Source: a bacterium (lineage in GTDB: Bacteria > Sysuimicrobiota > Sysuimicrobiia > Sysuimicrobiales > Kaftiobacteriaceae). Taken from it: 37,058 nt of DNA. Below the pieces are notes generated by a model. That model had not been told where the DNA came from and did not search any database. It was given only the letters and a program-made list of their open reading frames with translations. Numbering within the stretch: the stretch's first letter is position 1; each line of letters begins with the position of its first letter. The translations under genes and the position numbers were made by a program. Below are positions 969-28,818 of the stretch, piece by piece. The stretch covers positions 1 through 37,058 of the forward strand of contig JBIOWP010000029.1 in NCBI GenBank assembly GCA_044868695.1. The letters run 5' to 3'.

Positions 969-1047
969 CAAGGAAAAAGGAAGAGGGAAGAGGGAAGAGG
1001 GAAATACCATGGGGCCTTCTTCCCTCTTCCGTCTTCCCTTGTCCTTG
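969..1047. repeat. Heptamer (GGAAGAG/CTCTTCC) inverted-repeat hairpin, 'empty' copy
   Basis: Left arm 969-1001 CAAGGAAAAAGGAAGAGGGAAGAGGGAAGAGGG; right arm 1015-1047 CCTTCTTCCCTCTTCCGTCTTCCCTTGTCCTTG; 29/33 complementary with a 13-nt loop. It ends 3 nt before the SD (AAGGAGG, 1051-1057). Confidence 0.9.
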
Positions 1048-6185: not shown

Positions 6186-7029
6186 TCTGCGTACCGAGGC
6201 GATCGGGCTCATCGCCGGCGGGGGCAGCCTGCCGCTGGTCCTGGCGAAGGCCGTAAAATCCCGCGGCCACCCGCTCGTCTGCCTGGCCCTTGAAGGCGCG
6301 GACCCGGTGCTGGACGGTCTGGCGGATCATGCCTACCACATCCGCTTTGGGCAGATGGAGGATGGCATCGCCGCGCTGAGGCGGCACGGAGCCACCCGCG
6401 TCCTGATGGTCGGGCGCGTGTCGCGGACAGACCTGCTGGAGCGCGGCGACCCGCTGTTCCGCCGCGTGCTTGCCGAGGCTCCCGACCGTCGCGATCAGAC
6501 CGTGTTCCGGCAGGCCGTCGCCCGGATGCGCGATCTCGGCATCCACGTGCTCAACCCCCTCGAATTCGCGCCTGATCTCGCCGTGGCCCCCGGCGTGCAC
6601 ACGCGCCGCGCGCCCAGCGATGAGGAGTGGGCCGACATCCGGCTCGGCATGCTGGTCGCGCGGGCGGCCGCCGCGCTCGACGTGGGACAGACCGTCGTGC
6701 TGAAGCGCGGGGTGATCCTCGCGGTCGAAGCCGCCGAAGGCACGGACGCGGCGATCCGGCGTGGCGCTGCGATGGCGGGAGGCGCCGTCGTCGTGAAGGC
6801 CGCGCGTCCGGCGCAGGATCCGCGTTTTGACCTGCCGGCCATCGGCGTCCAGACGATCACGCTGCTGGCGGAGGTCGGCGCCACTGCCCTGGCCGTCGAG
6901 GCCGGAAAGACCCTGCTGCTGGAGCGGCCCGAGGCGCTCGCCGGCGCGGATCGGGCCGGCATTGCCGTGGTGGGAGTCGAACTCGGGGAGTCGGGGGTCG
7001 GGAGTCAGGGGTCGACTCCAGTTCCGTAG
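6175..7029 (+). CDS. lpxI: UDP-2,3-diacylglucosamine pyrophosphatase LpxI
   Basis: Motifs IGLIAGGGSLP, DVGQTVV, AVEAAEGTDAAIRR and QDPRFDLPAIG; lies between lpxA and lpxB. Confidence 0.93.
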   Translation: MGNDLRTEAIGLIAGGGSLPLVLAKAVKSRGHPLVCLALEGADPVLDGLADHAYHIRFGQMEDGIAALRRHGATRVLMVGRVSRTDLLERGDPLFRRVLAEAPDRRDQTVFRQAVARMRDLGIHVLNPLEFAPDLAVAPGVHTRRAPSDEEWADIRLGMLVARAAAALDVGQTVVLKRGVILAVEAAEGTDAAIRRGAAMAGGAVVVKAARPAQDPRFDLPAIGVQTITLLAEVGATALAVEAGKTLLLERPEALAGADRAGIAVVGVELGESGVGSQGSTPVP

Positions 7030-7070
7030 GGGAGACGGCGTGCGCACGGACCGACCCCCGACCCCCGGCC
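6986..7070. repeat. Heptamer inverted-repeat pair (GGGRGTC / GACCCCC) spanning the lpxI stop and lpxB start
   Basis: GGGAGTC GGGGGTC GGGAGTC AGGGGTC at 6986-7013; CCGACCCCCGACCCCCGGCC at 7051-7070. Confidence 0.8.
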
Positions 7071-13141: not shown

Positions 13142-13184
13142 AGACGTTAAAACGTTGGATCGTTGGAATGTTGGAACGTCCAGG
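13136..13184. repeat. Octamer tandem repeat (CGTTGGAA-type)
   Basis: CGTTGAAGA CGTTAAAA CGTTGGAT CGTTGGAA TGTTGGAA CGTCCAGG, overlapping the DUF3084 stop codon. Confidence 0.8.
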
Positions 13185-13445: not shown

Positions 13446-15293
13446 ATGGTGCATCATCCTCCCCGGCGCCATTGTGGCTGCTGGGGATTTTTGATGGGTT
13501 TCGTCGCGGCGGCAACTCTGGCAGGTGTCCGAGGCCCCGCGGCGTTCGGGCAGGTCCCGGAGCCTCCGCCCCCTGAGCCTCCGACGTTCGAGCTTCCCGA
13601 AGTCGTCGTCCCTGGAAAGCGCCCTCAGCCGATCGCCTCGACCCCGGCGGCGATTTCCGTCCTGACTAGAGAAGACTTGGACCTCCTGGGCGTCGCCACC
13701 GTCGGGGAGGCGTTGCAGTTCCTCGCGGAGGTCCACATGCGCCTTCAGGGCGGTTTGGGCGCGCTCACCCTCCCCGGCATCAGGGGCAGCAGCCCCAATC
13801 AGGTGCTCGTGCTGATCGACGGCGTCCCCGTCAACAGCGCGATCCAGGGCCTATTCGACCTCAGCACCGTGAGCACGGCCCACGTCCAGCGGGTGGAGGT
13901 CCTGCGCGGTCCGTTTTCTGCGATCTACGGAGGACCTGCGCTCGGCGGCGTGATCAACGTCGTCACGATGGATCAGCCCGCCACGTCGGTGCAGGCGCGC
14001 AGCGGGGGCCTGTCCACGACTGCGGCCTCCGGCCAGTGGACGTCACTCGACGGGCGGGTGAGGCTGGCGGCCGACCGGTTCGCATCGGAGGGAAGCCGGT
14101 CCAACAGCGATGTCGGGTCGACCACGGTCCTGGGCACGGCCGCGTGGGAGACGGCTGCCGGTGACCCGGTGGTGGTGAGAGTCAATCACTTCCAGAGCTC
14201 GCTCGGCACACCGGGTTCCACCGCTTTTCCCTCACCGCAGGCCCGGCAGACAGAGACACGGACGGTCCTATCGTCGGACTGGACCCGATCACGGGGAGAC
14301 GGAGAGTGGGCCGTTCGCGCGTACTGGTGGGGGGATGATTTCCGGTTCGTCGATCCCGCATCCTCTGTGGACAGTCGTGTGGCCACCCAGGTCTTCGGCG
14401 CGACCATCCAGCGGGTCGTGCACCTCGCGCCAGGCCGTACCCAGGTCTTCGGGGCCGAGCTTCAGAGCCAGGCGCTCGTGGACAACGGGCCGGTCGGCAG
14501 CCGGCAGGCCGCCATCGGTGGTCTCTATCTCCAGGACGAGCGACAGCTCACGCCTCGCACCGTGCTGTCGACTGGACTTCGGTACGACCTGCACTCGGTG
14601 TATGGAGGCCAGCTGAATCCCCGCGTGGGGATCGTGCATGTCATCCGGGAGGGGGTGACGCTGCGCGCGGGCATCGGCCGCACGTTTCGCGGGCCGACGC
14701 TGAGTGAACTGTACTTTGCTCCGTTCGACAACCCGGCTCTCCGGCCCGAGTCCGCCTGGTCGGCGGATGCCGGACTCGCGTGGCAGGCGACATCCGGAGT
14801 CGAGGTGCGGGTCGGTGTGTTCGGGACGTCGGCGGCGGATCTGATCCGTCCGGACGTGTCGTTCATCCCCCAGAACATTGGCCGCGCGACGATGGCCGGC
14901 GGCTCTCTGGAGATCACCGGGCAGTTCTCGCCGCTCCTTCGCGGCGCGGTCAACGTGACGGCGACGCGGGCGGTTGATGACAGCACGGGAGATCAACTGC
15001 TGCGCGTCCCCTGGGTCACGGCGTCGGCCGCCCTGCACCTCAAGGTTGCCGGAGGCACGATGAGCGCCCTGGCGAGCTACGTGGGCAGTCGGCCCGACGT
15101 GGACCCGGCAGCGTTCACCCGAGTCGTCCTGGGCGGCTACGTCGTCACCGGCTTGCGATTCGCTTCGCTTGCAGGGGACGGGGCGGAATGGCAGGTCGGC
15201 GTGGACAACGTCGCGGATCTTCAGTATGAACCGATTGCGGGGTATCCGGCTCCGGGCAGGACGGCGTTCGTCGCCTACACGAGGAGGTTTTAG
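13446..15293 (+). CDS. btuB: TonB-dependent receptor, BtuB-like (cobalamin uptake)
   Basis: SD AAGGAGG; TonB-box-like EVVV; plug motifs IRGSSPNQVLVLIDGVPVN and VEVLRGPFSAIYG; FRGPTLSELY; C-terminal Phe. Substrate inferred from the riboswitch. Confidence 0.85.
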   Translation: MVHHPPRRHCGCWGFLMGFVAAATLAGVRGPAAFGQVPEPPPPEPPTFELPEVVVPGKRPQPIASTPAAISVLTREDLDLLGVATVGEALQFLAEVHMRLQGGLGALTLPGIRGSSPNQVLVLIDGVPVNSAIQGLFDLSTVSTAHVQRVEVLRGPFSAIYGGPALGGVINVVTMDQPATSVQARSGGLSTTAASGQWTSLDGRVRLAADRFASEGSRSNSDVGSTTVLGTAAWETAAGDPVVVRVNHFQSSLGTPGSTAFPSPQARQTETRTVLSSDWTRSRGDGEWAVRAYWWGDDFRFVDPASSVDSRVATQVFGATIQRVVHLAPGRTQVFGAELQSQALVDNGPVGSRQAAIGGLYLQDERQLTPRTVLSTGLRYDLHSVYGGQLNPRVGIVHVIREGVTLRAGIGRTFRGPTLSELYFAPFDNPALRPESAWSADAGLAWQATSGVEVRVGVFGTSAADLIRPDVSFIPQNIGRATMAGGSLEITGQFSPLLRGAVNVTATRAVDDSTGDQLLRVPWVTASAALHLKVAGGTMSALASYVGSRPDVDPAAFTRVVLGGYVVTGLRFASLAGDGAEWQVGVDNVADLQYEPIAGYPAPGRTAFVAYTRRF

Positions 15294-15295
15294 CT

Positions 15296-16039
15296 GTGCG
15301 CACGGGCGCGGCGGTCCTCTATGGTATCGGTGCCGGTCTCGTAATCGCCGCATGGCTGGCGTCCCCGGAGCTGCGGGTGGTCCGGCCCCATCCACCTGCG
15401 CCCACCGCCGAAGAAGAGGCCGGCCCGACCTCCGGCGGGCCGGGGGCAGCGGTCGAGCCTGCTCCGGCCCCGCGGAAACCCGCCGCGACAGGACCGCGGG
15501 CCGGCGCAGACGTCAAGGTTTCCACTCCTCGTGCACCGGATCCGGTGAAGCAGGACGCCGCGCACGCAGTTCCGTCCCCGGGTCAGCTTGCGGCGGAGAA
15601 TCGTTCCACGCCGCGACACAGAGAGCCGCCCGACGGGGGTTCGGGAGCAGTCGAACACGGCGCGGCCGGCGAGCAGGCGACTGCGCCGGGTGGGGAGGCG
15701 CGGTCCGATTCGGACCACACTCCGGTGCTGGCGCCTCCCGTGTTGGTGAGCCGCGGATCGTCGGGATATCCGTCCGAGGGGTATCGCATCGTCCTCGACC
15801 GTAACGCGCTGACCCCGCGGCTCCGGGTCGAAGCCGCCCAGGGTCTGGTCGTCTTGCGGGTCCTCGTACGCCGGGATGGCTCCGTCGCTCAGGCAGAGGT
15901 GATGCGGTCGTCGGGCGTTCCGGCGCTCGACGCGGCCGCCCTGCGCAGCGCGGCCACCTGGAATTTCACGCCAGCTACTCGGGACGGCACGCCGATCGAG
16001 GCCTGGGTGCTGATCCCTGTCCGATTTGTCGTACCGTGA
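15296..16039 (+). CDS. tonB: Energy transducer TonB
   Basis: N-terminal TM, Pro/Ala-rich linker and TonB_C domain (YP...QGLVVLRVLVRRDGSV...SSGVPALDAAAL...WNFTPA...PVRF). Confidence 0.88.
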   Translation: MRTGAAVLYGIGAGLVIAAWLASPELRVVRPHPPAPTAEEEAGPTSGGPGAAVEPAPAPRKPAATGPRAGADVKVSTPRAPDPVKQDAAHAVPSPGQLAAENRSTPRHREPPDGGSGAVEHGAAGEQATAPGGEARSDSDHTPVLAPPVLVSRGSSGYPSEGYRIVLDRNALTPRLRVEAAQGLVVLRVLVRRDGSVAQAEVMRSSGVPALDAAALRSAATWNFTPATRDGTPIEAWVLIPVRFVVP

Positions 16040-16073
16040 AGGGGAGAAGGAAGAGGGAAGAGGGAAGAAGGGA
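16040..16073. repeat. Left (purine) heptamer arm flanking the four-helix-bundle gene
   Basis: AGGGGAGAAGGAAGAGGGAAGAGGGAAGAAGGGA begins immediately after the tonB stop. Confidence 0.9.
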
Positions 16074-16099
16074 CAGCGGGAGGGCAGGCGGGTGGATGT

Positions 16100-16468
16100 T
16101 TGGAAGCCTTGGGATACAAGAGACTGGCTATTTGGCAAAGAGCCCATGCACTTCTCAGGGCGGTATTGAAGGCTTCCCAGAAATTTCCGCGGTCGGAAGA
16201 GGCAAGGATAGTCAGAACCCAACTGCTCAGGGCGGCAATGTCTGTCCCAGCAAATATCGTGGAAGGCTATGGGGGACAACGAGGGAAGTCGTTCACGCGA
16301 TATCTAAACCTTTCGAGAGGTTCCGCATGGGAAGCAGACTATTGGATCCTCCTCGCTGAGGAACTTAAGGCGATTGACCGGGCCACCTATGAGGAAGTGC
16401 ACGGGCTGTGCCATGAAGTCATCGCAATGCTGACTTCCGCGATCGAAAAGGCAAGGACGATAGAGTAG
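16100..16468 (+). CDS. Four-helix-bundle protein (23S rRNA IVP / bAvd-like family)
   Basis: 122 aa with YKRLAIWQRA, FPRSEE, QLLRAAMSVPANIVEG, FTRYLNLSRGSAWE and EVIAML. More AT-rich, with AGA/ATA/GAA codons unlike its neighbours; TTG start. Confidence 0.9.
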   Translation: MEALGYKRLAIWQRAHALLRAVLKASQKFPRSEEARIVRTQLLRAAMSVPANIVEGYGGQRGKSFTRYLNLSRGSAWEADYWILLAEELKAIDRATYEEVHGLCHEVIAMLTSAIEKARTIE

Positions 16469-16956
16469 TGGACTTTCTCTCTTACTTCTTCCCTTTCCCC
16501 CTTTTCCTTCTTCCCTTTTCCCTCTTCCCTCTTCCCTGTCTCGTTATCATGGCCATCGATCCCGGTCGTGCCAAGAGCGGAGTGGTGGTCGCCGACGCGG
16601 CGGGAGGCGTTCTTACGATCCTGGAGCGCGGCGTGGTCCCCACCGCGGGCCTGGCCCCGCTCCTGCGGGAGTGGGGCAGCCGGCATGCGGTGACGCAGGT
16701 GGTCGTAGGGGACCGGACCGGAGGCGACGCCCTCCGCCGGATCCTTGTGGATGCACTGCCCGGCGTTCCCGTTGAAGCCGTCGGAGAGGCCCACACGACG
16801 TTGCTGGCCAGGCGCCGGTATTTCGCCGACCATCCACCCCGCGGATGGCGGCGTCTGCTCCCGCGCTCAATGCAGCTTCCCCCGGAGCCGTACGACGACT
16901 ACGCCGCGGTGGTGATTCTGGAGCGGTTCCTTGAGGGGAAGAGGCGACCTATATAA
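16468..16956 (+). CDS. YqgF/RuvX-like RNase H-fold nuclease; start either GTG 16468 (repeat-encoded tail) or ATG 16549
   Basis: IMAIDPGRAKSG, VVGDRTG, E-x-x-TTLLARRRYF and PPEPYDDYAAVVILERFL. Confidence 0.8.
   Translation: MDFLSYFFPFPLFLLPFSLFPLPCLVIMAIDPGRAKSGVVVADAAGGVLTILERGVVPTAGLAPLLREWGSRHAVTQVVVGDRTGGDALRRILVDALPGVPVEAVGEAHTTLLARRRYFADHPPRGWRRLLPRSMQLPPEPYDDYAAVVILERFLEGKRRPI
16473..16537. repeat. Right (pyrimidine) heptamer arm flanking the four-helix-bundle gene
   Basis: Near-pure C/T tract ending TTCCTTCTTCCCTTTTCCCTCTTCCCTCTTCCCT. 16504-16537 is 30/34 complementary to 16040-16073, and three of the four differences would be G-U pairs. Confidence 0.9.
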
Positions 16957-17060
16957 AACTTTGTATCTTTTCCGCAATCCCATGCCCCAGGGCAGGATTT
17001 CCCGGAATGGCGGAGTATTGCTCCTTGGACTAGTTGGACTGGCAAGGTATTCAAGTGTCC

Positions 17061-17203
17061 TGCCGTTCCACAGGGCGGCATTCGCGCGGAGGAAGGGAGG
17101 TGCAACCCCTCGGTCCGCCGGTGCCTGGACGGTAGGCTTCAGTGAGCCCACGGCCACCGTCGCAGCAAAGAGGAAACTCGCACACTCGTTTGTCTGTGCG
17201 CTG
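17061..17203 (+). other. Putative structured 5' leader of the SLH-porin gene
   Basis: Several hairpins and a GAAA-tetraloop stem within a 291-bp intergenic region (see findings). Confidence 0.4.
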
Positions 17204-17247
17204 GCCGCTGGCTCGAAGACCCAAAAATCCAAGGGGGTAACGAGCAG

Positions 17248-18813
17248 ATGAGGAATCTCGCACTTGCTGTTGCAGCAACCCTCGTGCTCGCGGTTGTCTC
17301 CCCCGTCTTTGCTCAGCCGTTTGCCGACGTCCCGACCGACCACTGGGCGTTTGACGCGATCGCTGAGCTCGCCGCGAAGGGCATCATCGAAGGCTTTCCG
17401 GATGGTACCTTCAAGGGCGATCGGGGAGTCACGCGATACGAGGTGGCCATGATCGTCGCCAGAATCCTGGCTCGCATCGAGGCCATCAAGATTCCCGGAC
17501 CCGCGCCGGCACCTGCGGCTCCCGCGCCGCAAGTCACCCGCGCGGACGTCCAGACCATCCAGCGGCTCGTCAACGAGTTCCGCGCAGAGCTGGCGGCCCT
17601 CGGTGTTCGGGTCACGGCGGTTGAGGAAGAGCTGACCGCTTTGAAGGGGACGAAGGACAACGTCGCCGTTAAGGGCGACGTCCGCCTCCGGTACAACGTC
17701 TTTCCGGGAGGCAGCGTCGGGGATACCGCACCGTCGATCCGCTACCGCAACCGGATGACCTTCACCGGTAAGGCGGGCAGCAACGTGACGGCCGTCGCGC
17801 GGGCATCGTTTGGCGGCGGCGGCGGCGGTCTTCCTGGAGGCACCGGCCCTGCTGGTCAGCGGGCCTTCAGGTTCGACTTCGACCTCCGCAGTCCGGAGTT
17901 CATGCAGACCGTCAACTTCGACTATGCCTATCTCGACCTGGCCGGCGTATTCGGACTGAACTGGCGGCTCGGGCAGCAGGCATACACGCTGTCCGGTGTC
18001 GGCTGGTCGGGGTACGGTCTGCTGTTTGACCCGTCCAACTCAGACATCTTCTCGCCTGTGGGTGTGGCGGACGGCTTGAAGGCGTCCGGCAGCTGGGGCG
18101 GCTTCAGCTTCGACATCGCAGACTGGCGCGAGTCGAACGGGCTCGACATTTGGACCGCTCGCGTCGAAACCGGCATGCTGGCCGGCTGGAACCTGGGCGT
18201 GTCGGCCCTGATGCAGCGCCGCAACGGTCAGGGCGCTCCATCCAGCATCACCACCGCGGCCGGCGACACGCCGACATCGGTGACCGGCGCCGTGAACACG
18301 TCGGACACCGGATATCAGGTGGACCTGGCGGGCGACCTGTTCCCCGGGTTCAGCGTCGGCGCAGCCTACGCCAGCTTCAATCCCGACGTAAGCGCTGGGA
18401 CGAGTTCCAACGCGTACATCGTCTGGATAGGCTGGGATCTGGGCGCAATGATGGGTGGTCTGTCTCCAGCCCTTACCTTGTGGTATAAGGACTACGGCTC
18501 GGCGACCGCCGGCGCGGGCGTTCCGTTCCACGGCGGCGCGACGACCGAGATCGGGGACTGGGACTACCTGGACTGGAACTTCACCGGATATGGCGCGGCG
18601 CTCGATCTAAAGTTCAGTCCATCGCTCTCTGGGACGATTTCCTATGAGCAAGGCGACCAGAAGGTCGGTGGCGCTGATGTCGTCGAGTACTACGCGTCGA
18701 TCGCCTACGCGCTCGCGGCGAATACGTCGGTGAGCCTCAACTACTTCAAGACGCAGCTCGCCGGCGTGGACACGCTCGACTTCTACCGCGTTCAGCTGAC
18801 CTACTCGTACTAG
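17248..18813 (+). CDS. SLH-domain outer-membrane porin/tether (OmpM/SlpA type)
   Basis: Signal peptide VFA-Q; SLH motif FADVPTDHWAFDAIAELAAKGIIEGFPDGTFKGDRGVTRYEVA; coiled coil LVNEFRAELAALGVRV; beta-barrel ending FYRVQLTYSY. Confidence 0.92.
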   Translation: MRNLALAVAATLVLAVVSPVFAQPFADVPTDHWAFDAIAELAAKGIIEGFPDGTFKGDRGVTRYEVAMIVARILARIEAIKIPGPAPAPAAPAPQVTRADVQTIQRLVNEFRAELAALGVRVTAVEEELTALKGTKDNVAVKGDVRLRYNVFPGGSVGDTAPSIRYRNRMTFTGKAGSNVTAVARASFGGGGGGLPGGTGPAGQRAFRFDFDLRSPEFMQTVNFDYAYLDLAGVFGLNWRLGQQAYTLSGVGWSGYGLLFDPSNSDIFSPVGVADGLKASGSWGGFSFDIADWRESNGLDIWTARVETGMLAGWNLGVSALMQRRNGQGAPSSITTAAGDTPTSVTGAVNTSDTGYQVDLAGDLFPGFSVGAAYASFNPDVSAGTSSNAYIVWIGWDLGAMMGGLSPALTLWYKDYGSATAGAGVPFHGGATTEIGDWDYLDWNFTGYGAALDLKFSPSLSGTISYEQGDQKVGGADVVEYYASIAYALAANTSVSLNYFKTQLAGVDTLDFYRVQLTYSY

Positions 18814-20495: not shown

Positions 20496-20609
20496 CAAGG
20501 GAAAAAGGAAGAGGGAAGATGGAAGAGGGCAGGGGAGATTGCTCCTCTGCCGTTTGTGTTTTCTCCCTCTCCCTCTTCCTTCTTCCTTCTTCCCTCGTCC
20601 TTTTTCCCT
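20496..20609. repeat. Heptamer (GGAAGAG/CTCTTCC) inverted-repeat hairpin within the pyr leader
   Basis: Purine arm 20496-20529; pyrimidine arm 20562-20609 ending 1 nt before SD GGAGG (20611-20615). Confidence 0.9.
20528..20562 (+). terminator. Attenuator terminator of the pyr leader
   Basis: GGCAGGGGAG-ATTG-CTCCTCTGCC followed by GTTTGTGTTTT. Confidence 0.75.
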
Positions 20610-20621
20610 CGGAGGCGTGTG

Positions 20622-21596
20622 ATGCGCCGCCACCTGCTGGGCCTGCGCGAATTCGACGCCGGTCAGCTGCTCCAGCTCCTGGACCTGGCGGACCGTTGCG
20701 AACGGGGCGCCCCGGCGGGCGCGCTCGAAGGCCGGACGGTCGTTACCCTCTTCTACGAACCCAGCACCCGCACGGAGATCTCCTTCGAGCTGGCAGCCAA
20801 GCGGCTCGGCGCTGCCGTCATCCGTTGCGATGTCGACCGCAGCAGCGTGAAGAAGGGGGAGAGGTTCGTCGACACCGTTCAGACGCTGGAGGCGCTGGGC
20901 GCGGACGTGGTGGTGATCCGGCACCCCTCGGCCGGCGCGGCGCACCTGGCGAGCCGCTGGGTGCGCAGCGCGATCGTGAACGCGGGCGACGGCATGCATG
21001 AGCATCCCACCCAGGGCCTGGTCGACCTGCTCACCGTCCGCCAGCGCGCCGGACGCATCGCGGGCCTGCGGGTGGCGATCGTGGGCGATGTCATCCATTC
21101 CCGCGTGGCGCGCTCCGCCCTGTGGGGCTTCACCATGCTGGGGGCCGCTGTCACTCTGGTTGGTCCGTCGACGCTGCTTCCTTCTTCCTTCTTCCCTTTT
21201 CCTTTGTCGGTGGCAATGACGTCGTCGCTTGAGGAAGGTCTCGAAGGCGCCGACGTTGTGATCGCGCTGCGGATGCAGCTGGAGCGCCAGCAGCACGGCC
21301 ACGTGCCGTCGTTGGGCGAGTATGCGCGGATGTACGCGATCACGCCGCAGACGCTGGCGCTGGCGCGGCCCGGCGCGCTGTTGATGCACCCCGGCCCGAT
21401 GAACCTCGGCGTGGAACTGTCGGCGGATGCTGCGTACGGACTGCAGTCCACCGTCCACCAGCAGGTCCACAACGGCGTGGCGGTGCGGATGGCGGTACTG
21501 CTGTGGTGCCTGGGACTCGATAAGATTTCGGAAACGGGGAACGCGGGAACGCGGGAACGCGAAACTGTCCCGGCAATGATCGGGGACAAGGAATAG
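20622..21596 (+). CDS. pyrB: Aspartate carbamoyltransferase catalytic subunit
   Basis: FYEPSTRT, SSVKKGE, NAGDGMHEHPTQ, HSRVARS, RMQLER and MHPGP; SD GGAGG 6 nt before ATG 20622. Confidence 0.95.
   Translation: MRRHLLGLREFDAGQLLQLLDLADRCERGAPAGALEGRTVVTLFYEPSTRTEISFELAAKRLGAAVIRCDVDRSSVKKGERFVDTVQTLEALGADVVVIRHPSAGAAHLASRWVRSAIVNAGDGMHEHPTQGLVDLLTVRQRAGRIAGLRVAIVGDVIHSRVARSALWGFTMLGAAVTLVGPSTLLPSSFFPFPLSVAMTSSLEEGLEGADVVIALRMQLERQQHGHVPSLGEYARMYAITPQTLALARPGALLMHPGPMNLGVELSADAAYGLQSTVHQQVHNGVAVRMAVLLWCLGLDKISETGNAGTRERETVPAMIGDKE
21177..21206. repeat. Pyrimidine heptamer arm embedded in the pyrB coding sequence
   Basis: CTTCCTT CTTCCTT CTTCCCT TTTCCTT TG, encoding LPSSFFPFPL. Confidence 0.8.
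21530..21565. repeat. Octamer tandem repeat GGAACGCG x3 in the pyrB 3' end
   Basis: GGAAACGG GGAACGCG GGAACGCG GGAACGCG AAAC. Confidence 0.8.
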
Positions 21597-21598
21597 TC

Positions 21599-22930
21599 AT
21601 GGGTCTGCTGATCCGCGGAGGGCGCGTCGTCGACCCGGCCGGCGGGGGTGAGCGGGCCGCCGACGTGTTGCTCGAGGGCGAGCGCATCGCCGCCGTCGGG
21701 CCGGCACTCGCTCCCGCTGGGCATCAGGTGCTCGACGCGCAGGGCCTCGTCGTCGCGCCGGGATTGGTCGACATGCACGTCCACCTGCGCGATCCGGGGC
21801 AGACGCACAAGGAAGATATCGTCTCGGGCACCGCCGCGGCCGTGCGGGGCGGGTTCACGGCGGTCGCCTGCATGCCGAATACCGCACCGCCCCTCGATCA
21901 TCCCACGGTCATTGAGTACGTCCTCAGCCGCTCGGCGAAGACCGGGGCGTGCCGCGTCCATCCCATTGGGACCATCACCAAAGGCCGGGCTGGGCAAGAA
22001 TTGGCCCCGATCGCCGGCCTGGCGGCGGCCGGAGCGGTGGCGCTCTCTGACGACGGCGACGCCGTGGCCGATGCGGGTCTGCTGGGTCGGGCGATGCGGT
22101 ATGCCCGGCAGTTCAACCTCCCGCTGATCGAACACTGCGAAGATCGCGCCCTCAGCGACGGAGGCGTGATGCACGACGGTGGATGGTCCGCGATCCTGGG
22201 GCTCCGGGGAATCCCCTCGTCGAGCGAGGAGGTCGTCGTCGCCCGGGACCTCCTGCTGGCGGAAGCCACGGGTGCCCGGTTGCACATCGCGCACGTCAGC
22301 AGCGCCGGCAGCGTGCGGCTGATCCGTGAGGCTCGGCGGAGAGGCGTCCGGGTCACCGCCGAAGTCACCCCGCACCACCTCCTGCTCACCGAAGAGGCCG
22401 TGCGCGGGTTTGACACGAACGCCAAAATGAACCCGCCGCTGCGCGCGGCCGCTGACCGCTCGGCGCTGCTCGAAGGGCTCGCGGACGGGACGATCGACGT
22501 CATCGCGACCGACCACGCGCCCCACGCGCCTGAAGACAAACTCGTGGAGTTTGACCAGGCGCCGTTTGGTGTCGTCGGCCTGGAAACGGCGCTGGCTCTC
22601 GTGCTGACCCACCTGGTGCGTCCCGGCGTGCTGCCCTTGGCGGAGGCCCTGCGCCGCATGAGCACCCTTCCGGCGGACATCCTTGGGCTTCCCGGCGGCC
22701 GGCTGGAACCCGGTGCGCCCGCGGATGTGGTGCTGATCGATCCGGACCGCGCCTGGACTGCGGATCCGGCCTCCTTTGCGTCAAAGTCCCGCAACACCCC
22801 GTTCGCCGGATGGCCGCTGGTGGGGCAGCCGGTGCTGACGATCGTCGCGGGGGAGATCAAGTACGACGAACGTACGGGCACCGGGCACCGGGCGCCGGAT
22901 TTCGCCGGCGAGGAAGTGCGCGCCAGATGA
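21599..22930 (+). CDS. pyrC: Dihydroorotase (multifunctional-complex type)
   Basis: DMHVHLRDPG, CMPNT, EHCED, HIAHVS, KMNPPLR, IATDHAPH and SKSRNTPF. Confidence 0.95.
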   Translation: MGLLIRGGRVVDPAGGGERAADVLLEGERIAAVGPALAPAGHQVLDAQGLVVAPGLVDMHVHLRDPGQTHKEDIVSGTAAAVRGGFTAVACMPNTAPPLDHPTVIEYVLSRSAKTGACRVHPIGTITKGRAGQELAPIAGLAAAGAVALSDDGDAVADAGLLGRAMRYARQFNLPLIEHCEDRALSDGGVMHDGGWSAILGLRGIPSSSEEVVVARDLLLAEATGARLHIAHVSSAGSVRLIREARRRGVRVTAEVTPHHLLLTEEAVRGFDTNAKMNPPLRAAADRSALLEGLADGTIDVIATDHAPHAPEDKLVEFDQAPFGVVGLETALALVLTHLVRPGVLPLAEALRRMSTLPADILGLPGGRLEPGAPADVVLIDPDRAWTADPASFASKSRNTPFAGWPLVGQPVLTIVAGEIKYDERTGTGHRAPDFAGEEVRAR

Positions 22931-22988
22931 CGCAGAGCGCGTCACAGGGTGTGGTCCCGCGGAGCCCGGAGCCCGAGGCCCGGAGCCC
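22875..22988. repeat. Heptamer inverted-repeat pair spanning the pyrC/pyrD ATGA overlap
   Basis: CGGGCAC CGGGCAC CGGGCGC CGG at 22875-22898; CGGAGCC CGGAGCC CGAGGCC CGGAGCC C at 22960-22988. Confidence 0.78.
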
Positions 22989-27178: not shown

Positions 27179-28818
27179 CGAGGCAGGAGCGGATCGCTCT
27201 GAGCGATGGGACCAGGGACCAGGGACCAGGGACCAGAATCGACCCGTCCGCCTGGTCCCCGGTCCCCGGTCCCGGGTCCCGTCCCTTTGCGGTCGATACC
27301 GTCATCGTGCTTGACTTCGGAGCGCAGTACGCGCAACTGATCGCCCGCCGAGTTCGCGAGAGCAAAGTCTACAGTCTGATCCTGCCGTACGACGTCTCGT
27401 TCGACGAGCTCATGGCCCGCCGGCCGAAAGGGATCATCCTGTCCGGCGGACCCGCGAGCGTCTATGAGCCCGGCGCCCCGCGCTGCGACCCGAGGATCTT
27501 CGATGGCCAGATTCCGGTCCTGGGCATCTGCTACGGGATGCAGCTGATCGCCCACGCGCTGGGGGGGCAGACGGCGGCGGCGGGACACCGCGAGTACGGG
27601 CGGACCCGGCTGTTCGTCGACGACCGGGCTGATCTATTCAACGGGCTGGAGCCAAAGTTGATGTGTTGGATGAGTCACGGAGACTCCGTGGTCACACTCC
27701 CCGACGGGTTCACCGCTCTGGCGCGCACCGATCACAACCCGGTGGCCGCCATGGGCAACCGGGAACGCCGGCAGTACGGCGTGCAGTTCCATCCCGAGGT
27801 GACCCACACCCCGTGGGGTGCGCAGGTCCTGGACAACTTCCTCACCGGCGTCTGCGGATGCCGCCCGCAGTGGACGATGGGAGCCTTCATCGACACGCAG
27901 GTCGACGCGATCCGCCGGACGGTGAAGACCGCCCGTGCGCTCTGCGCCCTCTCCGGGGGCGTGGACTCGGCGGCGGCCGCCGCGCTGGTTCACCGCGCGA
28001 TCGGCGACCAGCTAACCTGCATTTTTGTCGACCACGGCCTGCTCCGGCGCGGCGAGCCCGAACAGGTCCTCCAGACCTTCCGCCATCACTTCCAGATCCC
28101 GCTGGTCCACGTCGACGCGCGGGCGCGTTTTGCGGATAGACTGACCGGCATCGCCGACCCGGAGCGCAAGCGCCGCGTCATCGGGGAAGAGTTCATCGCG
28201 GTGTTCGGCGAGCAGGCCCGGGCGCTCGGGACGGTGGACTTCCTAGTCCAGGGCACCCTCTACCCGGACGTCATCGAAAGCGGCACCCGCACGGCGGCGC
28301 GCATCAAGACCCACCACAATGTCGGGGGGCTCCCGGAGCACATGCAGTTCCGCCTCATCGAGCCGTTCCGCGAGCTCTTCAAAGACGAGGTGCGCGAAGT
28401 CGCCCGGCAGCTCGGGCTCCCCGATGAAATGGTCTGGCGGCATCCGTTTCCGGGGCCCGGCTTGGCCATCCGGGTGCTGGGCGAGGTCACGCCCGACCGC
28501 CTGGAAGTGGAGCGGGCCGCCGATGCCATTGTGGTAGAGGAGCTGCGCGCCGCCGGCCTCATGCGCACCGTCTGGCAGGGGTTCGCGGTGCTGCTGCCGG
28601 TGCATTCGGTGGGAGTCATGGGCGATGCCCGCACCTACGGCCACACCGTGGTCGTGCGTGTCGTTACCAGCCAGGACGGCATGACGGCAGACTGGGCCCG
28701 CCTGCCCGATGACCTGCTGGAACGGATCGCGAGCCGGATCACGCGTGAAATCCCCGGGATCACCCGCGTGGCGTACGACATCACCTCGAAACCCCCCGCA
28801 ACCATCGAGTGGGAATAG
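27175..28818 (+). CDS. guaA: GMP synthase (glutamine-hydrolysing) with a repeat-derived N-terminal insert
   Basis: [36 protein letters not shown] and [13 protein letters not shown]. Confidence 0.97.
27208..27280. repeat. Heptamer inverted-repeat hairpin (GGGACCA x4 / NGGTCCC x4) within the guaA 5' coding region
   Basis: GGGACCA x4 at 27208-27235; TGGTCCC CGGTCCC CGGTCCC GGGTCCC at 27253-27280. Confidence 0.92.

Follow-up and report, generated by a model that had tools for sequence, protein, structure and literature searches.

An IVP-family gene enclosed by inverted heptamer arrays between protein-coding genes, and its association with repeat hairpins across bacterial genomes

The 37-kb window (the whole stretch of DNA analyzed, 37,058 nt) contains, on the + strand at 16038-16537, a cassette of ~0.5 kb in which a gene of the IVP family lies in the loop between two inverted 7-nt arrays. 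Upstream is a TonB-like gene (15296..16039, +; Pfam TonB_C, E 1e-16; TIGR01352, E 2e-14) whose TGA stop codon ends at 16039, abutting the 5′ arm. This arm is built of ~5 purine-rich GGGAAGA-type heptamers (16038..16081, +, from TRF and the inverted repeat); TRF alone gives it a period of 7 and 4.7 copies from 16038 or 16040 to 16073. The IVP/TIGR02436 gene (16100..16468, +; ORF, Pfam, and TIGRFAM) has 122 codons and an uncertain TTG start, and the HMM profile matches its product from residue 7 on. It is followed by a 3′ arm of ~9 pyrimidine-rich TCTTCCC-type heptamers (16475..16537, +; TRF, inverted repeat, and RNA fold), for which TRF reports 8.9 copies at period 7 and a period of 21 as well. 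A YqgF/RuvX-like gene (16549..16956, +), whose match to Pfam RuvX falls under the cut-off at E 5e-4, begins with an ATG 11 nt past this arm.

The best inverted repeat at the locus pairs 16040-16081 with 16496-16537 over 42 nt at 86% complementarity, with 414 nt between the arms. When 16030-16550 is folded as RNA, the paired arms enclose the whole gene in both the minimum free energy (MFE) and centroid structures, and the MFE of −209.9 kcal/mol (z −4.2) was equaled by 0 of 100 shuffles. GC content is 0.53 in the ORF and 0.70 in its flanks, and ranges from 0.51 to 0.57 over the cassette against 0.67 to 0.77 for the flanks. A first-pass annotation of this DNA was right to describe a 122-aa ORF of foreign composition bracketed by pairing arms. 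It was equally right that the window lacks a transposase or reverse transcriptase (RT): a Pfam scan of 39 ORFs in the window found neither, and the RT genes of this genome lie on other contigs. The cassette is not set in a 23S rRNA helix; its neighbors are the TonB-like and YqgF-like genes, and Rfam returned no match in 15800-16800. A search of the + strand over 15200-17300 yielded neither a sigma-70-like promoter nor a terminator.

The 122-aa protein encoded at 16100-16468 (P0001) belongs firmly to the family named for the 23S rRNA intervening sequences. It matches PF05635 (23S_rRNA_IVP) at E 1.3e-28 (99.7 bits against a cut-off of 33.8), the sole Pfam family to do so at E ≤ 0.01, and TIGR02436 at E 1.5e-29 (102.4 bits against 24). 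An AlphaFold2 model (pLDDT 93.3) places helices at residues 2-26, 33-58, 63-88, and 94-121, and Foldseek aligned it to chains of the family structures 2gsc (XCC0516) and 2rld (BT_0352), each of which has 5 chains in its entry, at TM 0.64-0.90, and to Avd of diversity-generating retroelements (DGRs; 8ub7, 4dwl, and related entries) at TM 0.71-0.83. Similarity to solved structures at the sequence level was confined to 2gsc and 2rld (phmmer E 4.6e-10 and 5.9e-7). Together these searches uphold the earlier assignment to an Avd-like four-helix bundle of the IVP family. Of the GxxRxxxSxxxNxxE motif quoted for this family (PMC3936711), P0001 has the R-x3-S-x3-N-x2-E core, reading RAAMSVPANIVE, while the leading G is missing; N52, E55, and G56 are invariant across 20 aligned sequences. 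Purifying selection on the protein is strong: dN/dS between the orthologues of two genus-g5 genomes is 0.08, compared to 0.25-0.34 for the neighboring genes, and amino acid identity between the source genome (G000) and g5 is 67-69% for the IVP protein and 56-61% for the neighbors. PADLOC returned no match for three IVP proteins, and tblastn found 0 matches at E 1e-6 in 50,697 phage records.

The arm unit of the cassette also occurs in the window without a gene, as the first-pass annotation had reported. One gene-less hairpin (979..1039, between two + strand genes; TRF) joins (GGAAGAG)3.6 to (TCTTCCC)3.1 across a 14-nt loop, and another (20498..20611; TRF), of the cassette-arm unit with a 34-nt loop, lies just 5′ of a pyrB-like gene. 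A lone array of 4 copies of CTTCCTT, a related unit, is found within the pyrB-like ORF region (21177..21204; TRF); it has no near partner and, taken as a pair with 20498-20529, is separated from it by 647 nt. In the genome as a whole, inverted array pairs number 70 at period 7, 19 at period 8, and 12 at period 9, with 0 at periods 5, 6, and 10; one of the 12 period-9 pairs, on contig C40 with a 441-nt loop, was dismissed as coding sequence rather than a cassette. Only 3 of the 70 period-7 hairpins have a loop longer than 200 nt, and each of these holds an IVP gene, while the loops of the 67 gene-less pairs span 3-178 nt. Most gene-less hairpins share the G-rich-first polarity of the cassette, and 6 of the 7 GGGAAGA arrays of G000 are on this 37-kb contig. 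The cassette belongs, as a gene-bearing form, to this population of mostly gene-less hairpins of period 7, 8, or 9. For the largest hairpin families of G000 (GGGACCA and others), the assembly, which is 95% complete, contains no cognate cassette.

Comparison with relatives shows the cassette to be a discrete, hairpin-bounded unit, as had been proposed. Empty alleles of the tonB-yqgF junction, which the first-pass annotation suggested looking for, exist in 10 relatives from three families, where yqgF is conserved beside tonB (46-66% amino acid identity), the spacer is 11-62 nt and cassette-free, and no hairpin whatever is present at the junction. Among the genomes compared, a cassette is found at this site only in G000 and two genus-g5 genomes. 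Its arms read GGGAAGA/TCTTCCC in G000 and GGGAAAA/TTTTCCC in g5, so that both arms have been altered in concert, and across orthologous cassettes complementarity between arms is kept at 0.80-0.95 while arm identity between orthologues is 0.65-1.0. The cassette has been retained since the split of the two genera. A comparison that spans genera only shows no evident target duplication where the cassette meets tonB and yqgF, no excision products and no recent or near-identical cassette copies were seen, and the three cassettes of G000 carry three different arm units.

We asked whether paired arms are a general property of the family, counting a locus as armed when its inverted-repeat score reached 13, a threshold picked after the scores were seen. 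In the phylum of the source genome, 36 of 41 IVP genes (E ≤ 1e-19) were armed, compared to 1 of 58 control windows placed 800 nt away, and this single armed control is an artifact arising from a run of N. Loci gathered from other genomes with a four-sequence alignment query gave 62/75 armed against 0/142 shifted windows, and median inverted-repeat scores were 21 and 18.5, against 9.5 and 8.5 for controls. After collapsing a "Desulfomicrobium"/"Kiritimatiellia" pair and five more orthologous loci, the non-redundant set from other phyla had 52 armed loci out of 63, and the shifted controls pooled came to 1/200. The test for enrichment of flanking arms that the first-pass annotation had suggested is strongly positive. 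It is not universal: 11 of the 63 non-redundant loci and one entire clade of the family are without arms, and the family-wide tally in the phylum was 36/41 and 2/18 armed. The "Desulfomicrobium"/"Kiritimatiellia" pair was rejected as a case of cassette transfer; the arms in the two metagenome-assembled genomes are identical, and the whole 2.6-kb locus is 95% identical. The family also occurs on 37 plasmid records, with 4 of 6 plasmid loci of cultured strains armed.

The arms are inverted tandem repeats of period 7, 8, or 9, and the same package recurs in many bacterial phyla. Within the phylum, 20, 9, and 8 cassettes have arms of period 7, 8, and 9, respectively. Period and unit track the clade of the protein; all six period-9 GTCT cassettes, for example, form one clade (support 100/98), and paralogous cassettes within a genome have their period and core unit in common. 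At long distance a match between unit and protein was looked for and rejected: P0001 is only 31% identical to a GGGAARA-armed Geminocystis protein, GGGAARA-armed cyanobacterial proteins are no closer to it than others, and its nearest non-orthologous relatives (~37% identity) have arms of other units. Arm lengths were 37, 37, and 43.5 nt, and arms made of non-G-tract units are equal in length. Arm length could reflect either a required stem length or a count of ~five units.

Repeat arrays are also more abundant where IVP genes are more numerous. Across 94 genomes of the phylum, the array count correlated with the IVP count at a rho of 0.40, and in an independent replicate of 61 genomes from an acidobacterial order at 0.82 (0.80 allowing for genome size); these values ignore shared ancestry, and the signal in the phylum may reflect just a few gains and losses. 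In array counts made with partial patterns (GGG-phase, or AGT-/TGA-phase) over overlapping windows, phylum genomes with at least 3 IVP genes had 51-152 hits, compared to a median of 5 in the remainder, and replicate genomes had medians of 1, 32, 179, and 307 hits at 0, 1-2, 3-4, and at least 5 IVP genes. Arrays of AGTTGGAA were abundant, at 20-73 hits, only in the genus whose cassette has AGTTGGAA arms; G000 had 2 hits and the other 18 genomes 0. There are exceptions: 5 of 25 IVP-free replicate genomes still had 29-135 hits, genus g14 had 20-27 hits and 0 IVP genes, and GTGAATC arrays were abundant (85 hits in G017, 56 in G002) where no GTGAATC-armed cassette was seen. In sum, the gene lies between arrays of a repeat family of its own, and across genomes the gene co-occurs with scattered copies of that family that enclose no gene, a correlation that leaves ancestry aside. 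Since arm period follows clade, arrays scale with IVP number, and same-unit hairpins cluster by the cassette, we suggest that the protein is tied to the repeats; that it binds, processes, or spreads the hairpins, as first proposed, is a reading for which these patterns are only correlative. The confinement of gene-less hairpins in G000 to the periods of cassette arms, the agreement between arm period and protein clade, and the rise of heptamer-array abundance with IVP number in two unrelated clades are new observations.

Among the closest known systems is the intervening sequence (IVS) of the Coxiella burnetii 23S rRNA, which measures 428 nt, contains the S23p ORF, and forms a stem of 28 bp that RNase III cleaves (PMC4990558). 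Tandem heptamers, whose number differs among strains, precede that ORF at the site of cleavage (PMC4990558). Like such an IVS, the window cassette is ~0.4 to 0.5 kb long with a family protein in its loop, a long stem of terminal inverted repeats, and heptamers at its 5′ end. The two differ in that the window cassette sits between protein genes of an operon and not in an rRNA helix, and its cleavage would follow only by analogy. Furthermore, the Coxiella authors argue that the S23p ORF is decaying (PMC4990558), whereas the window protein is strongly conserved by purifying selection. In the proposal of an "mRNA intervening sequence," then, the IVS-like design, the position between protein genes, and the placement on their strand stand, while the part played by the protein is correlative. 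Cassettes in other phyla likewise lie on the strand of their neighbors: longest-ORF strand calls put upstream neighbors on the cassette strand in 28 cases versus 2 and downstream neighbors in 22 versus 3, with just 7/38 upstream and 8/38 downstream neighbors callable in the high-GC phylum set. Strand calling from GC at codon positions was discarded because it did not pass a validation against genes of the window itself.

Our preferred explanation, to which we assign a probability of roughly 0.55, is that the locus is an rRNA-IVS-like cassette residing in mRNA, whose protein would be tied to its repeats in a manner analogous to REPIN-RAYT systems. The cassette would be transcribed along with the operon, and in the operon RNA the arms would pair as a stem of 40 to 50 bp with the gene looped out, as in ORF-bearing IVSs of 23S rRNA. 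The stem would probably be cut by RNase III, a gene for which is present in G000, and such cutting may be what allows the insert to be tolerated inside an operon. The repeat arrays would probably be recognized by the IVP protein, which has no recognizable catalytic domain, and recognition would tie gene to repeats as RAYT is tied to REPIN. One unit per subunit would suit, as solved family entries have five chains and arms have ~five units. Stem cleavage would sever the host operon mRNA too, a point against this explanation.

REPIN-RAYT systems likewise have a small gene set between hairpin repeats of its own, dispersed gene-less hairpins, and a lineage-specific repeat family inherited largely vertically (PMC3337134, PMC3116915). 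They differ in that RAYT is an HUH tyrosine transposase and REPs are fixed palindromes, while IVP is a four-helix bundle with no known catalytic motif and its arms are tandem arrays of 7- to 9-nt units; purely by analogy, we infer that IVP might mobilize the repeats. A second parallel lies in the GGGAATC and GGGGAYT heptamers of Xanthomonas and Nostoc (Rehm et al. 2015, PMC4692102), which occur as arrays of roughly at least 4 units and as 70-75 inverted pairs per genome, are intergenic between co-directional genes, and vary in number among relatives. The window cassette shares the two convergent heptamer arrays and the co-directional genes. PMC4692102 treats these heptamers as G-quadruplex-forming simple repeats and leaves the IVP gene family unmentioned; by comparison, the arrays described here are tied to a gene, units without a G tract share the same arm length, and the 414-nt loop is gene bearing. 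[quoted passage not shown] IVP genes have also been reported inside cas operons (PMC3936711).

Several other explanations deserve weighing. The cassette might be a mobile element at the DNA level, with arms that host or trans-acting enzymes would recombine, whether as terminal inverted repeats or as DNA hairpins, IVP as a specificity factor, gene-less hairpins as MITE-like derivatives, and RNA pairing as incidental. The presence or absence of the whole unit at a single junction would fit, as would the joint inheritance of gene and arms, the period and core unit shared by paralogous cassettes in a genome, the many same-unit gene-less hairpins in carrier genomes and their local clustering, and the occurrence of the family on plasmids; REPIN-RAYT, in which a gene lies between copies of its own repeat, provides a precedent (PMC3337134). 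We nevertheless consider this unlikely, given that the IVP protein contains neither a nuclease domain nor a recombinase domain, no transposase was found in the window, and neither near-identical copies nor target duplications were seen. Arms differ between copies, so a single trans-acting enzyme with fixed ends would not fit; compared with a MITE or DNA transposon, the cassette shows unlike arm units among copies, no cognate transposase, and no evident duplication. The strong sense bias within operons also fits a constraint on RNA or expression and not DNA ends alone. Alternatively, hairpins might be born independently by slippage, with the IVP gene homing to, or surviving in, their loops as safe, RNA-insulated sites and its protein serving an unrelated function. 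Gene-less hairpins do far outnumber cassettes, some hairpin families have no cognate cassette, the GGGAARA-armed cyanobacterial proteins, at 31% identity, resemble P0001 no more than others do, and heptamer arrays have been described with no mention of an IVP gene (PMC4692102, PMC4679880). We regard this as quite improbable: random landing would not predict arm periods and units that follow clade across non-orthologous loci, relatives are hairpin-free at tonB-yqgF, IVP number and arrays show a dose-like relation in two clades, and periods of 7 to 9 are found in cassette arms and gene-less hairpins alike.

The likeness of P0001 to Avd raises the idea of a retroelement accessory, in which IVP would act like Avd with an RT encoded elsewhere and the arrays would be products of templated or slipped reverse transcription. 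P0001 shares the four-helix-bundle fold of Avd (TM 0.71-0.83), which the titles of DGR entries 4dwl and 8ub7 describe as part of an RT ribonucleoprotein, and G000 has RT genes on contigs C44, C32, C86, C100, and C47. Against this, no RT is adjacent to the gene or elsewhere in the window, no template/variable repeat pair was noticed around it, and RT does not co-occur with IVP across genomes: RVT_1 (PF00078) is absent from 8 of 10 phylum genomes with at least 2 armed-type IVP genes (G004, G010, G009, G017, G005, G011, G015, and G069). The need for an RT was not borne out, and we judge a retroelement role very improbable. Finally, an ordinary small gene might lie by chance beside two simple-sequence repeats, given that tandem heptamers are common in G000 (370 period-7-type arrays). 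The shifted-window controls already refute this (36/41 and 62/75 loci armed, against an N artifact in 58 windows and none in 142), as does the IVP gene in every period-7 hairpin with a loop longer than 200 nt, and the probability left to chance is negligible.

Beyond the cassette itself, we offer a tentative and more doubtful extension, in which IVP proteins would be the missing partner of bacterial 7- to 9-nt arrays and hairpins, including the "G-quadruplex" heptamers of Xanthomonas and Nostoc. A ring of ~five bundles might bind ~five units, one per subunit, much as TRAP binds triplet repeats. The protein might then drive the birth and spread of arrays, as in REPIN-RAYT with no transposase fold, or use the arrays as a dispersed RNA regulon. 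Our literature search found no paper describing the hairpin-wrapped IVP architecture as a general rule. Combining IVP protein names with heptamers or repeats returned only the Coxiella paper (PMC4990558), while "TIGR02436" was found in no paper and "PF05635" in a DGR review only.

Three puzzles that have been treated separately for 10 to 35 years meet at this locus: the purpose of the ORFs in rRNA IVSs, the abundance of heptamers and their inverted pairs in some bacteria, and the role of free-standing Avd-like proteins. The window and the cross-genome counts join them through a small conserved protein whose gene is enclosed by a hairpin of its own repeats and increases in copy number along with repeat load. 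The protein's own arm provides a concrete substrate for binding assays, and the proposed cleavage gives a clear prediction for RNase III end mapping; cultured carriers include Nostoc punctiforme PCC 73102 (pNPUN02, positions 15234-15599, with AGGAGTC-type arms), Nostoc sp. ATCC 53789, Gemmatirosa kalamazoonensis, and Bacteroides thetaiotaomicron. For annotation, IVP genes in cas, par, acc-like, or ton operons should be read as insertions and not as operon members. If the partnership between IVP proteins and arrays is true, the ORF-bearing IVSs of rRNA would be a special case, in which a cassette landed in an rRNA helix.

The window is a series of plus-strand housekeeping genes (lpxD/C/A/I/B, fabZ, lptC/A/B/FG, a TonB-dependent receptor gene, tonB, yqgF, an SLH porin gene, pyrB/C/D/F, guaB/A, uvrD, and opp), and none of the 39 ORFs scanned in it encodes a transposase or reverse transcriptase (RT). 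Within this series, the TonB_C gene (15296-16039, +) ends in a TGA that lies directly against a purine-rich period-7 array, the 5′ arm (16038-16073). There follow an ORF of 122 residues (16100-16468, +), assigned by profile search to the 23S_rRNA_IVP (IVP) four-helix-bundle family (PF05635, E 1.3e-28; TIGR02436, E 1.5e-29), a pyrimidine-rich period-7 array, the 3′ arm (16475-16537), and, eleven bases beyond it, the ATG of a YqgF/RuvX-like gene on the same strand. The arms are 86% complementary over 42 nt (16040-16081 and 16496-16537), and, folded as RNA, the 521-nt cassette stretch encloses the gene between the paired arms (MFE −209.9 kcal/mol, z −4.2). GC content is 0.51-0.57 within the cassette versus 0.67-0.77 in its surroundings. 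The AlphaFold2 model of the IVP protein, from a 20-sequence alignment, has four long helices (pLDDT 93.3); its top structural matches are XCC0516 (2gsc) and BT_0352 (2rld), followed by Avd of DGR ribonucleoprotein structures (TM 0.71-0.83), and a sequence search returned 2gsc at E 4.6e-10 and 2rld at E 5.9e-7. Gene-less hairpins, arm pairs without an IVP gene, carry the same GGGAAGA-type unit at 979-1039 and 20498-20611. The first-pass annotation, which had described an IVP-like gene enclosed in a repeat hairpin at 16036-16551, was right in every particular (ORF, family, arms, stem, and cargo-free copies), and the finding is real.

The cassette had also been proposed to be a mobile unit, and empty alleles of its junction were found: tonB and yqgF are spaced 11 to 62 nt apart, with no IVP gene between them, in 10 genomes that together represent three families of the order (G001, G005, G006, G016, G018, G019, G020, G021, G022, and G025). 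An IVP gene occupies this junction only in G000, the genome carrying the window, and in both genomes of genus g5 (G004 and G010), whose proteins are 67 to 69% identical to the window protein. The arms read (GGGAAAA)n/(TTTTCCC)n in g5 versus (GGGAAGA)n/(TCTTCCC)n in G000, a concerted change in both arms. Across six orthologous cassette groups, arm complementarity within a cassette was 0.80 to 0.95, and arm identity between orthologues was 0.65 to 1.0. These comparisons show that the cassette is an insertion that arrived as a unit and was kept for a long time with its arms changing in concert. In genus g4, a tonB-yqgF gap of ~1.3 kb (G014:C289:17000-19500, L079) is filled by a non-IVP insert. 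Between orthologous loci of related MAGs with flanks at 82 to 93% identity, the cassette gave no blastn match at E 1e-20 (L147 versus L162), or the match ended ~115 nt short of the IVP gene (L145 versus L152); since the flanks aligned, the absent or interrupted match indicates that cassette DNA diverges faster than its surroundings.

The IVP gene itself is under purifying selection and is functional, as its substitution pattern shows. Between G010 and G004, the IVP gene has a dN/dS of 0.08, compared with 0.25 in yqgF and 0.34 in the tonB C terminus. Between G000 and g5, where synonymous sites are saturated, IVP protein identity (67 to 69%) exceeds that of both neighbours (56 to 61%). GC3 is 0.57 to 0.73 in the IVP gene beside 0.80 to 0.94 in its neighbours, which indicates that the gene has not drifted towards host composition.

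We found the same arrangement around most IVP genes. G000 has four PF05635 matches, three of them inside inverted heptamer arrays with three different arm units: GGGAAGA in the window, CGGGCAC on contig C150, and ATTGCGG on contig C157. Among the 70 period-7 inverted array pairs of this genome, a loop longer than 200 nt occurs only in these three cassettes (358, 401, and 425 nt). On C157 (G000:C157:1-600, L003), the IVP frame (151 open codons) continues across the 3′ arm, and the arm may encode a C-terminal tail of the protein; a tRNA-like sequence follows this gene near the contig start. The fourth IVP gene (G000:C27:15513-15818, −; L004) is armless and has native high GC. It falls in a separate clade (100/100) of eleven such genes, with at most one per genome in the bacterial family, and has the appearance of a paralogue that was passed on vertically and perhaps domesticated.

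Across the phylum, the search returned 61 PF05635 matches in 22 of 94 genomes. The arm score of a match was that of the best inverted repeat, without gaps, joining the 250 nt that precede it to the 280 nt that follow. At a threshold of 13, chosen once scores were known, 36 of the 41 matches at E ≤1e-19 were armed, as were 2 of 18 weaker matches (two more weak ones had flanks that were too short) and 1 of 58 control windows shifted by 800 nt, that one being a run of N. Arm period was 7 in 20 cassettes, 8 in 9, 9 in 8, and 11 in 1. In other phyla, a 4-sequence alignment found 80 loci, 5 of them short of flank; 62 of the 75 scored were armed, versus 0 of 142 shifted windows. Removal of 6 loci repeating the phylum set and 6 orthologues of another row left 52 of 63 armed, 45 of these with period 7. 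Record titles include Gemmatimonadota, Patescibacteria groups, Bacteroidota, Acidobacteriota, Planctomycetota, Proteobacteria, Armatimonadota, Omnitrophota, and Vampirovibrio-like and Firmicutes MAGs. The predicted enrichment of flanking arms thus appeared in both sets, and the gene-in-arms pattern is general.

Plasmid loci of cultured strains were armed in four of six cases examined (Nostoc sp. ATCC 53789, N. punctiforme pNPUN02, Gemmatirosa kalamazoonensis, and Geminocystis). The cassette of Geminocystis sp. NIES-3709 (pGM3709_03, L168) is flanked by parB and a gene for a ParA-like AAA ATPase and is a further example of insertion within a conserved gene pair. Plasmids gamma and alpha of Nostoc sp. 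PCC 7120 (L163 and L164) retain the 3′ array (CTCTGCC-type) alone; the two loci share one four-helix-bundle protein accession, adjoining IS/transposase genes, and ~450 nt at 91% identity.

IVP genes lie in sense orientation inside operons. With neighbour strand taken from a clear longest ORF, which was callable mainly in the lower-GC loci of other phyla and mostly uncallable in the high-GC phylum set, the IVP gene matched its 5′ neighbour in 28 cases and opposed it in 2 (22 of 52 uncalled), and matched its 3′ neighbour in 22 and opposed it in 3 (27 of 52 uncalled). A simple consensus match, which is weak evidence, detected no sigma-70-like promoter or terminator-like site on the plus strand of 15200-17300. 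Orientation and scan are both consistent with a cassette relying on transcription that reads through from the host operon.

Gene-less hairpins share the periods of cassette arms. G000 has adjacent inverted array pairs of period 7 (n = 70), 8 (n = 19), and 9 (n = 12, one a coding false positive) and none of period 5, 6, or 10. The G-rich arm comes first in 66 of 70 period-7 pairs and the C-rich arm in 1; among cassettes, the 5′ arm has more G than C in 29 of the 38 from the phylum and 40 of the 52 from elsewhere. In the window, further gene-less hairpins lie between plus-strand genes: GGGGTCG between lpxI and lpxB (6983-7067), CGGGCAC between pyrC and pyrD (22875-22988), and GGGACCA between guaB and guaA (27208-27280). 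A period-8 array of 3.6 copies of AACGTTGG, a unit partly palindromic in itself, lies at 13151-13179 between the DUF3084 and TonB-dependent receptor genes.

Arrays also accompany IVP genes in number. GGGAAGA-type arrays are concentrated on the 37-kb window contig (6 of 7 in the 2.59-Mb assembly). Among 22 genomes of the bacterial family, only those of g6, the genus with a AGTTGGAA-armed cassette, are rich in AGTTGGAA arrays (73, 32, and 20 hits); G000 has 2 hits and the other 18 have 0. GTGAATC arrays number 110 in G009, which carries a GTGAATC-armed cassette, and 85 in G017 and 56 in G002, though no such cassette was seen there. In an Acutalibacteraceae MAG (1.7 Mb, 4 IVP genes), the arm unit of its own cassette, TAGGGAA, gave 129 hits, compared with none in four other genomes, and a Vicinamibacterales MAG with 9 IVP matches has 165 AGTAGGC hits, many as close +/− pairs. 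G000 has 152 hits for four phased GGG-N4 units, compared with 44 at spacing 8 and 5 at spacing 6. Genera g1, g3, g4, g5, and g6, with armed IVP genes, have 31 to 152 GGG-phase hits; g2 and g7, with none or one, have 0 to 18; and other families of the phylum mostly have <10, g14 being an exception (20 to 27 hits, no IVP gene). The other exceptions, G051 and G052, owe their inflated counts to several short contigs with long runs of poly-G, which are likely artefacts of sequencing or assembly. Ignoring species kinship, array hits and IVP count correlate across the phylum at Spearman rho 0.40. In 61 genomes of the order of the Vicinamibacterales MAG, IVP matches (E ≤1e-15) and AGT-phase plus TGA-phase heptamer hits gave rho 0.82 (0.80 allowing for genome size), at heptamer spacing only and with kinship again ignored. 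Median hits rose from 1 with no IVP match to 32 (1 or 2 matches), 179 (3 or 4), and 307 (5 or more); of 25 IVP-free genomes, 18 had 5 hits or fewer and five had 29 to 135. IVP genes therefore co-vary with repeat arrays.

From these correlations and the Avd-like fold of the model, we infer that the IVP protein may recognise the arrays. In a maximum-likelihood tree of 54 IVP sequences (few columns, many open forks, seven short or stop-containing rows left out), cassettes alike in arm period and unit cluster together: one clade (100/98) holds all six period-9 GTCT-core cassettes, including same-genome paralogue pairs, both AATTGCG cassettes are sisters, and 8-mer cassettes group in clades. Linkage by descent explains this match of arm and protein clade as well as recognition does. 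Median arms for periods 7, 8, and 9 are 37, 37, and 43.5 nt (5.3, 4.6, and 4.8 units), or about five units irrespective of period, and are equally long for units with or without G-tracts, which argues against quadruplex formation setting arm length. Five-unit arms would suit a ring of some five subunits and a required stem length equally well.

Dependence on RT was rejected, as RVT_1 matches are absent from 8 of the 10 phylum genomes with at least two IVP genes of the armed type. In G000, an RT ORF of ~630 aa occurs in four copies, each starting near a contig end (C32, C86, C100, and C47), with two RT matches on C44; these RT genes probably mark repeated retroelements at which the assembly breaks. 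The IVP protein had no match to known defence proteins in PADLOC, no IVP gene was found in phage records, and the cassette matched no Rfam family.

Related observations have been published from several lineages. In the Coxiella intervening sequence (IVS) of 23S rRNA, a 28-bp terminal stem is cleaved internally by RNase III, and three tandem GACAGAT heptamers, strain-variable in number, precede the S23p ORF (PMC4990558). Rehm et al. (2015, PMC4692102) describe 186 GGGAATC arrays in X. campestris, with 70 inverted pairs, read as quadruplex forming, and make no mention of the IVP family; array #15 of their table, with no partner array listed, lies six nt past bccP (XCC0517) and overlaps the start codon annotated for XCC0516, whose protein is the IVP family member that was crystallised. 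TAACTGA heptamer repeats are described without mention of the family (MacGregor 2015, PMC4679880), 18 IVP genes lie inside cas loci, e.g., between cmr3 and cmr2 (Zhang et al. 2013, PMC3936711), and CPR genomes have IVP ORFs within 16S and 23S rRNA gene insertions (preprint 10.1101/2024.02.27.582315). We found no general account of the gene-in-heptamer-hairpin design in the literature covered, which excludes most subscription journals.

By analogy with the rRNA IVS, the cassette would be co-transcribed with its host operon, its arms would form a 40- to 50-bp RNA stem in the transcript, and RNase III, whose gene is present in the genome, would cut that stem. The REPIN-RAYT pair is the closest working analogy for the IVP gene and its repeats, with the difference that no enzyme fold is recognisable in the IVP protein. 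An IVS-like cassette within mRNA, as first proposed, is the best reading available, and the suggestion that the IVP protein may act on the hairpins is supported by the correlations described here.
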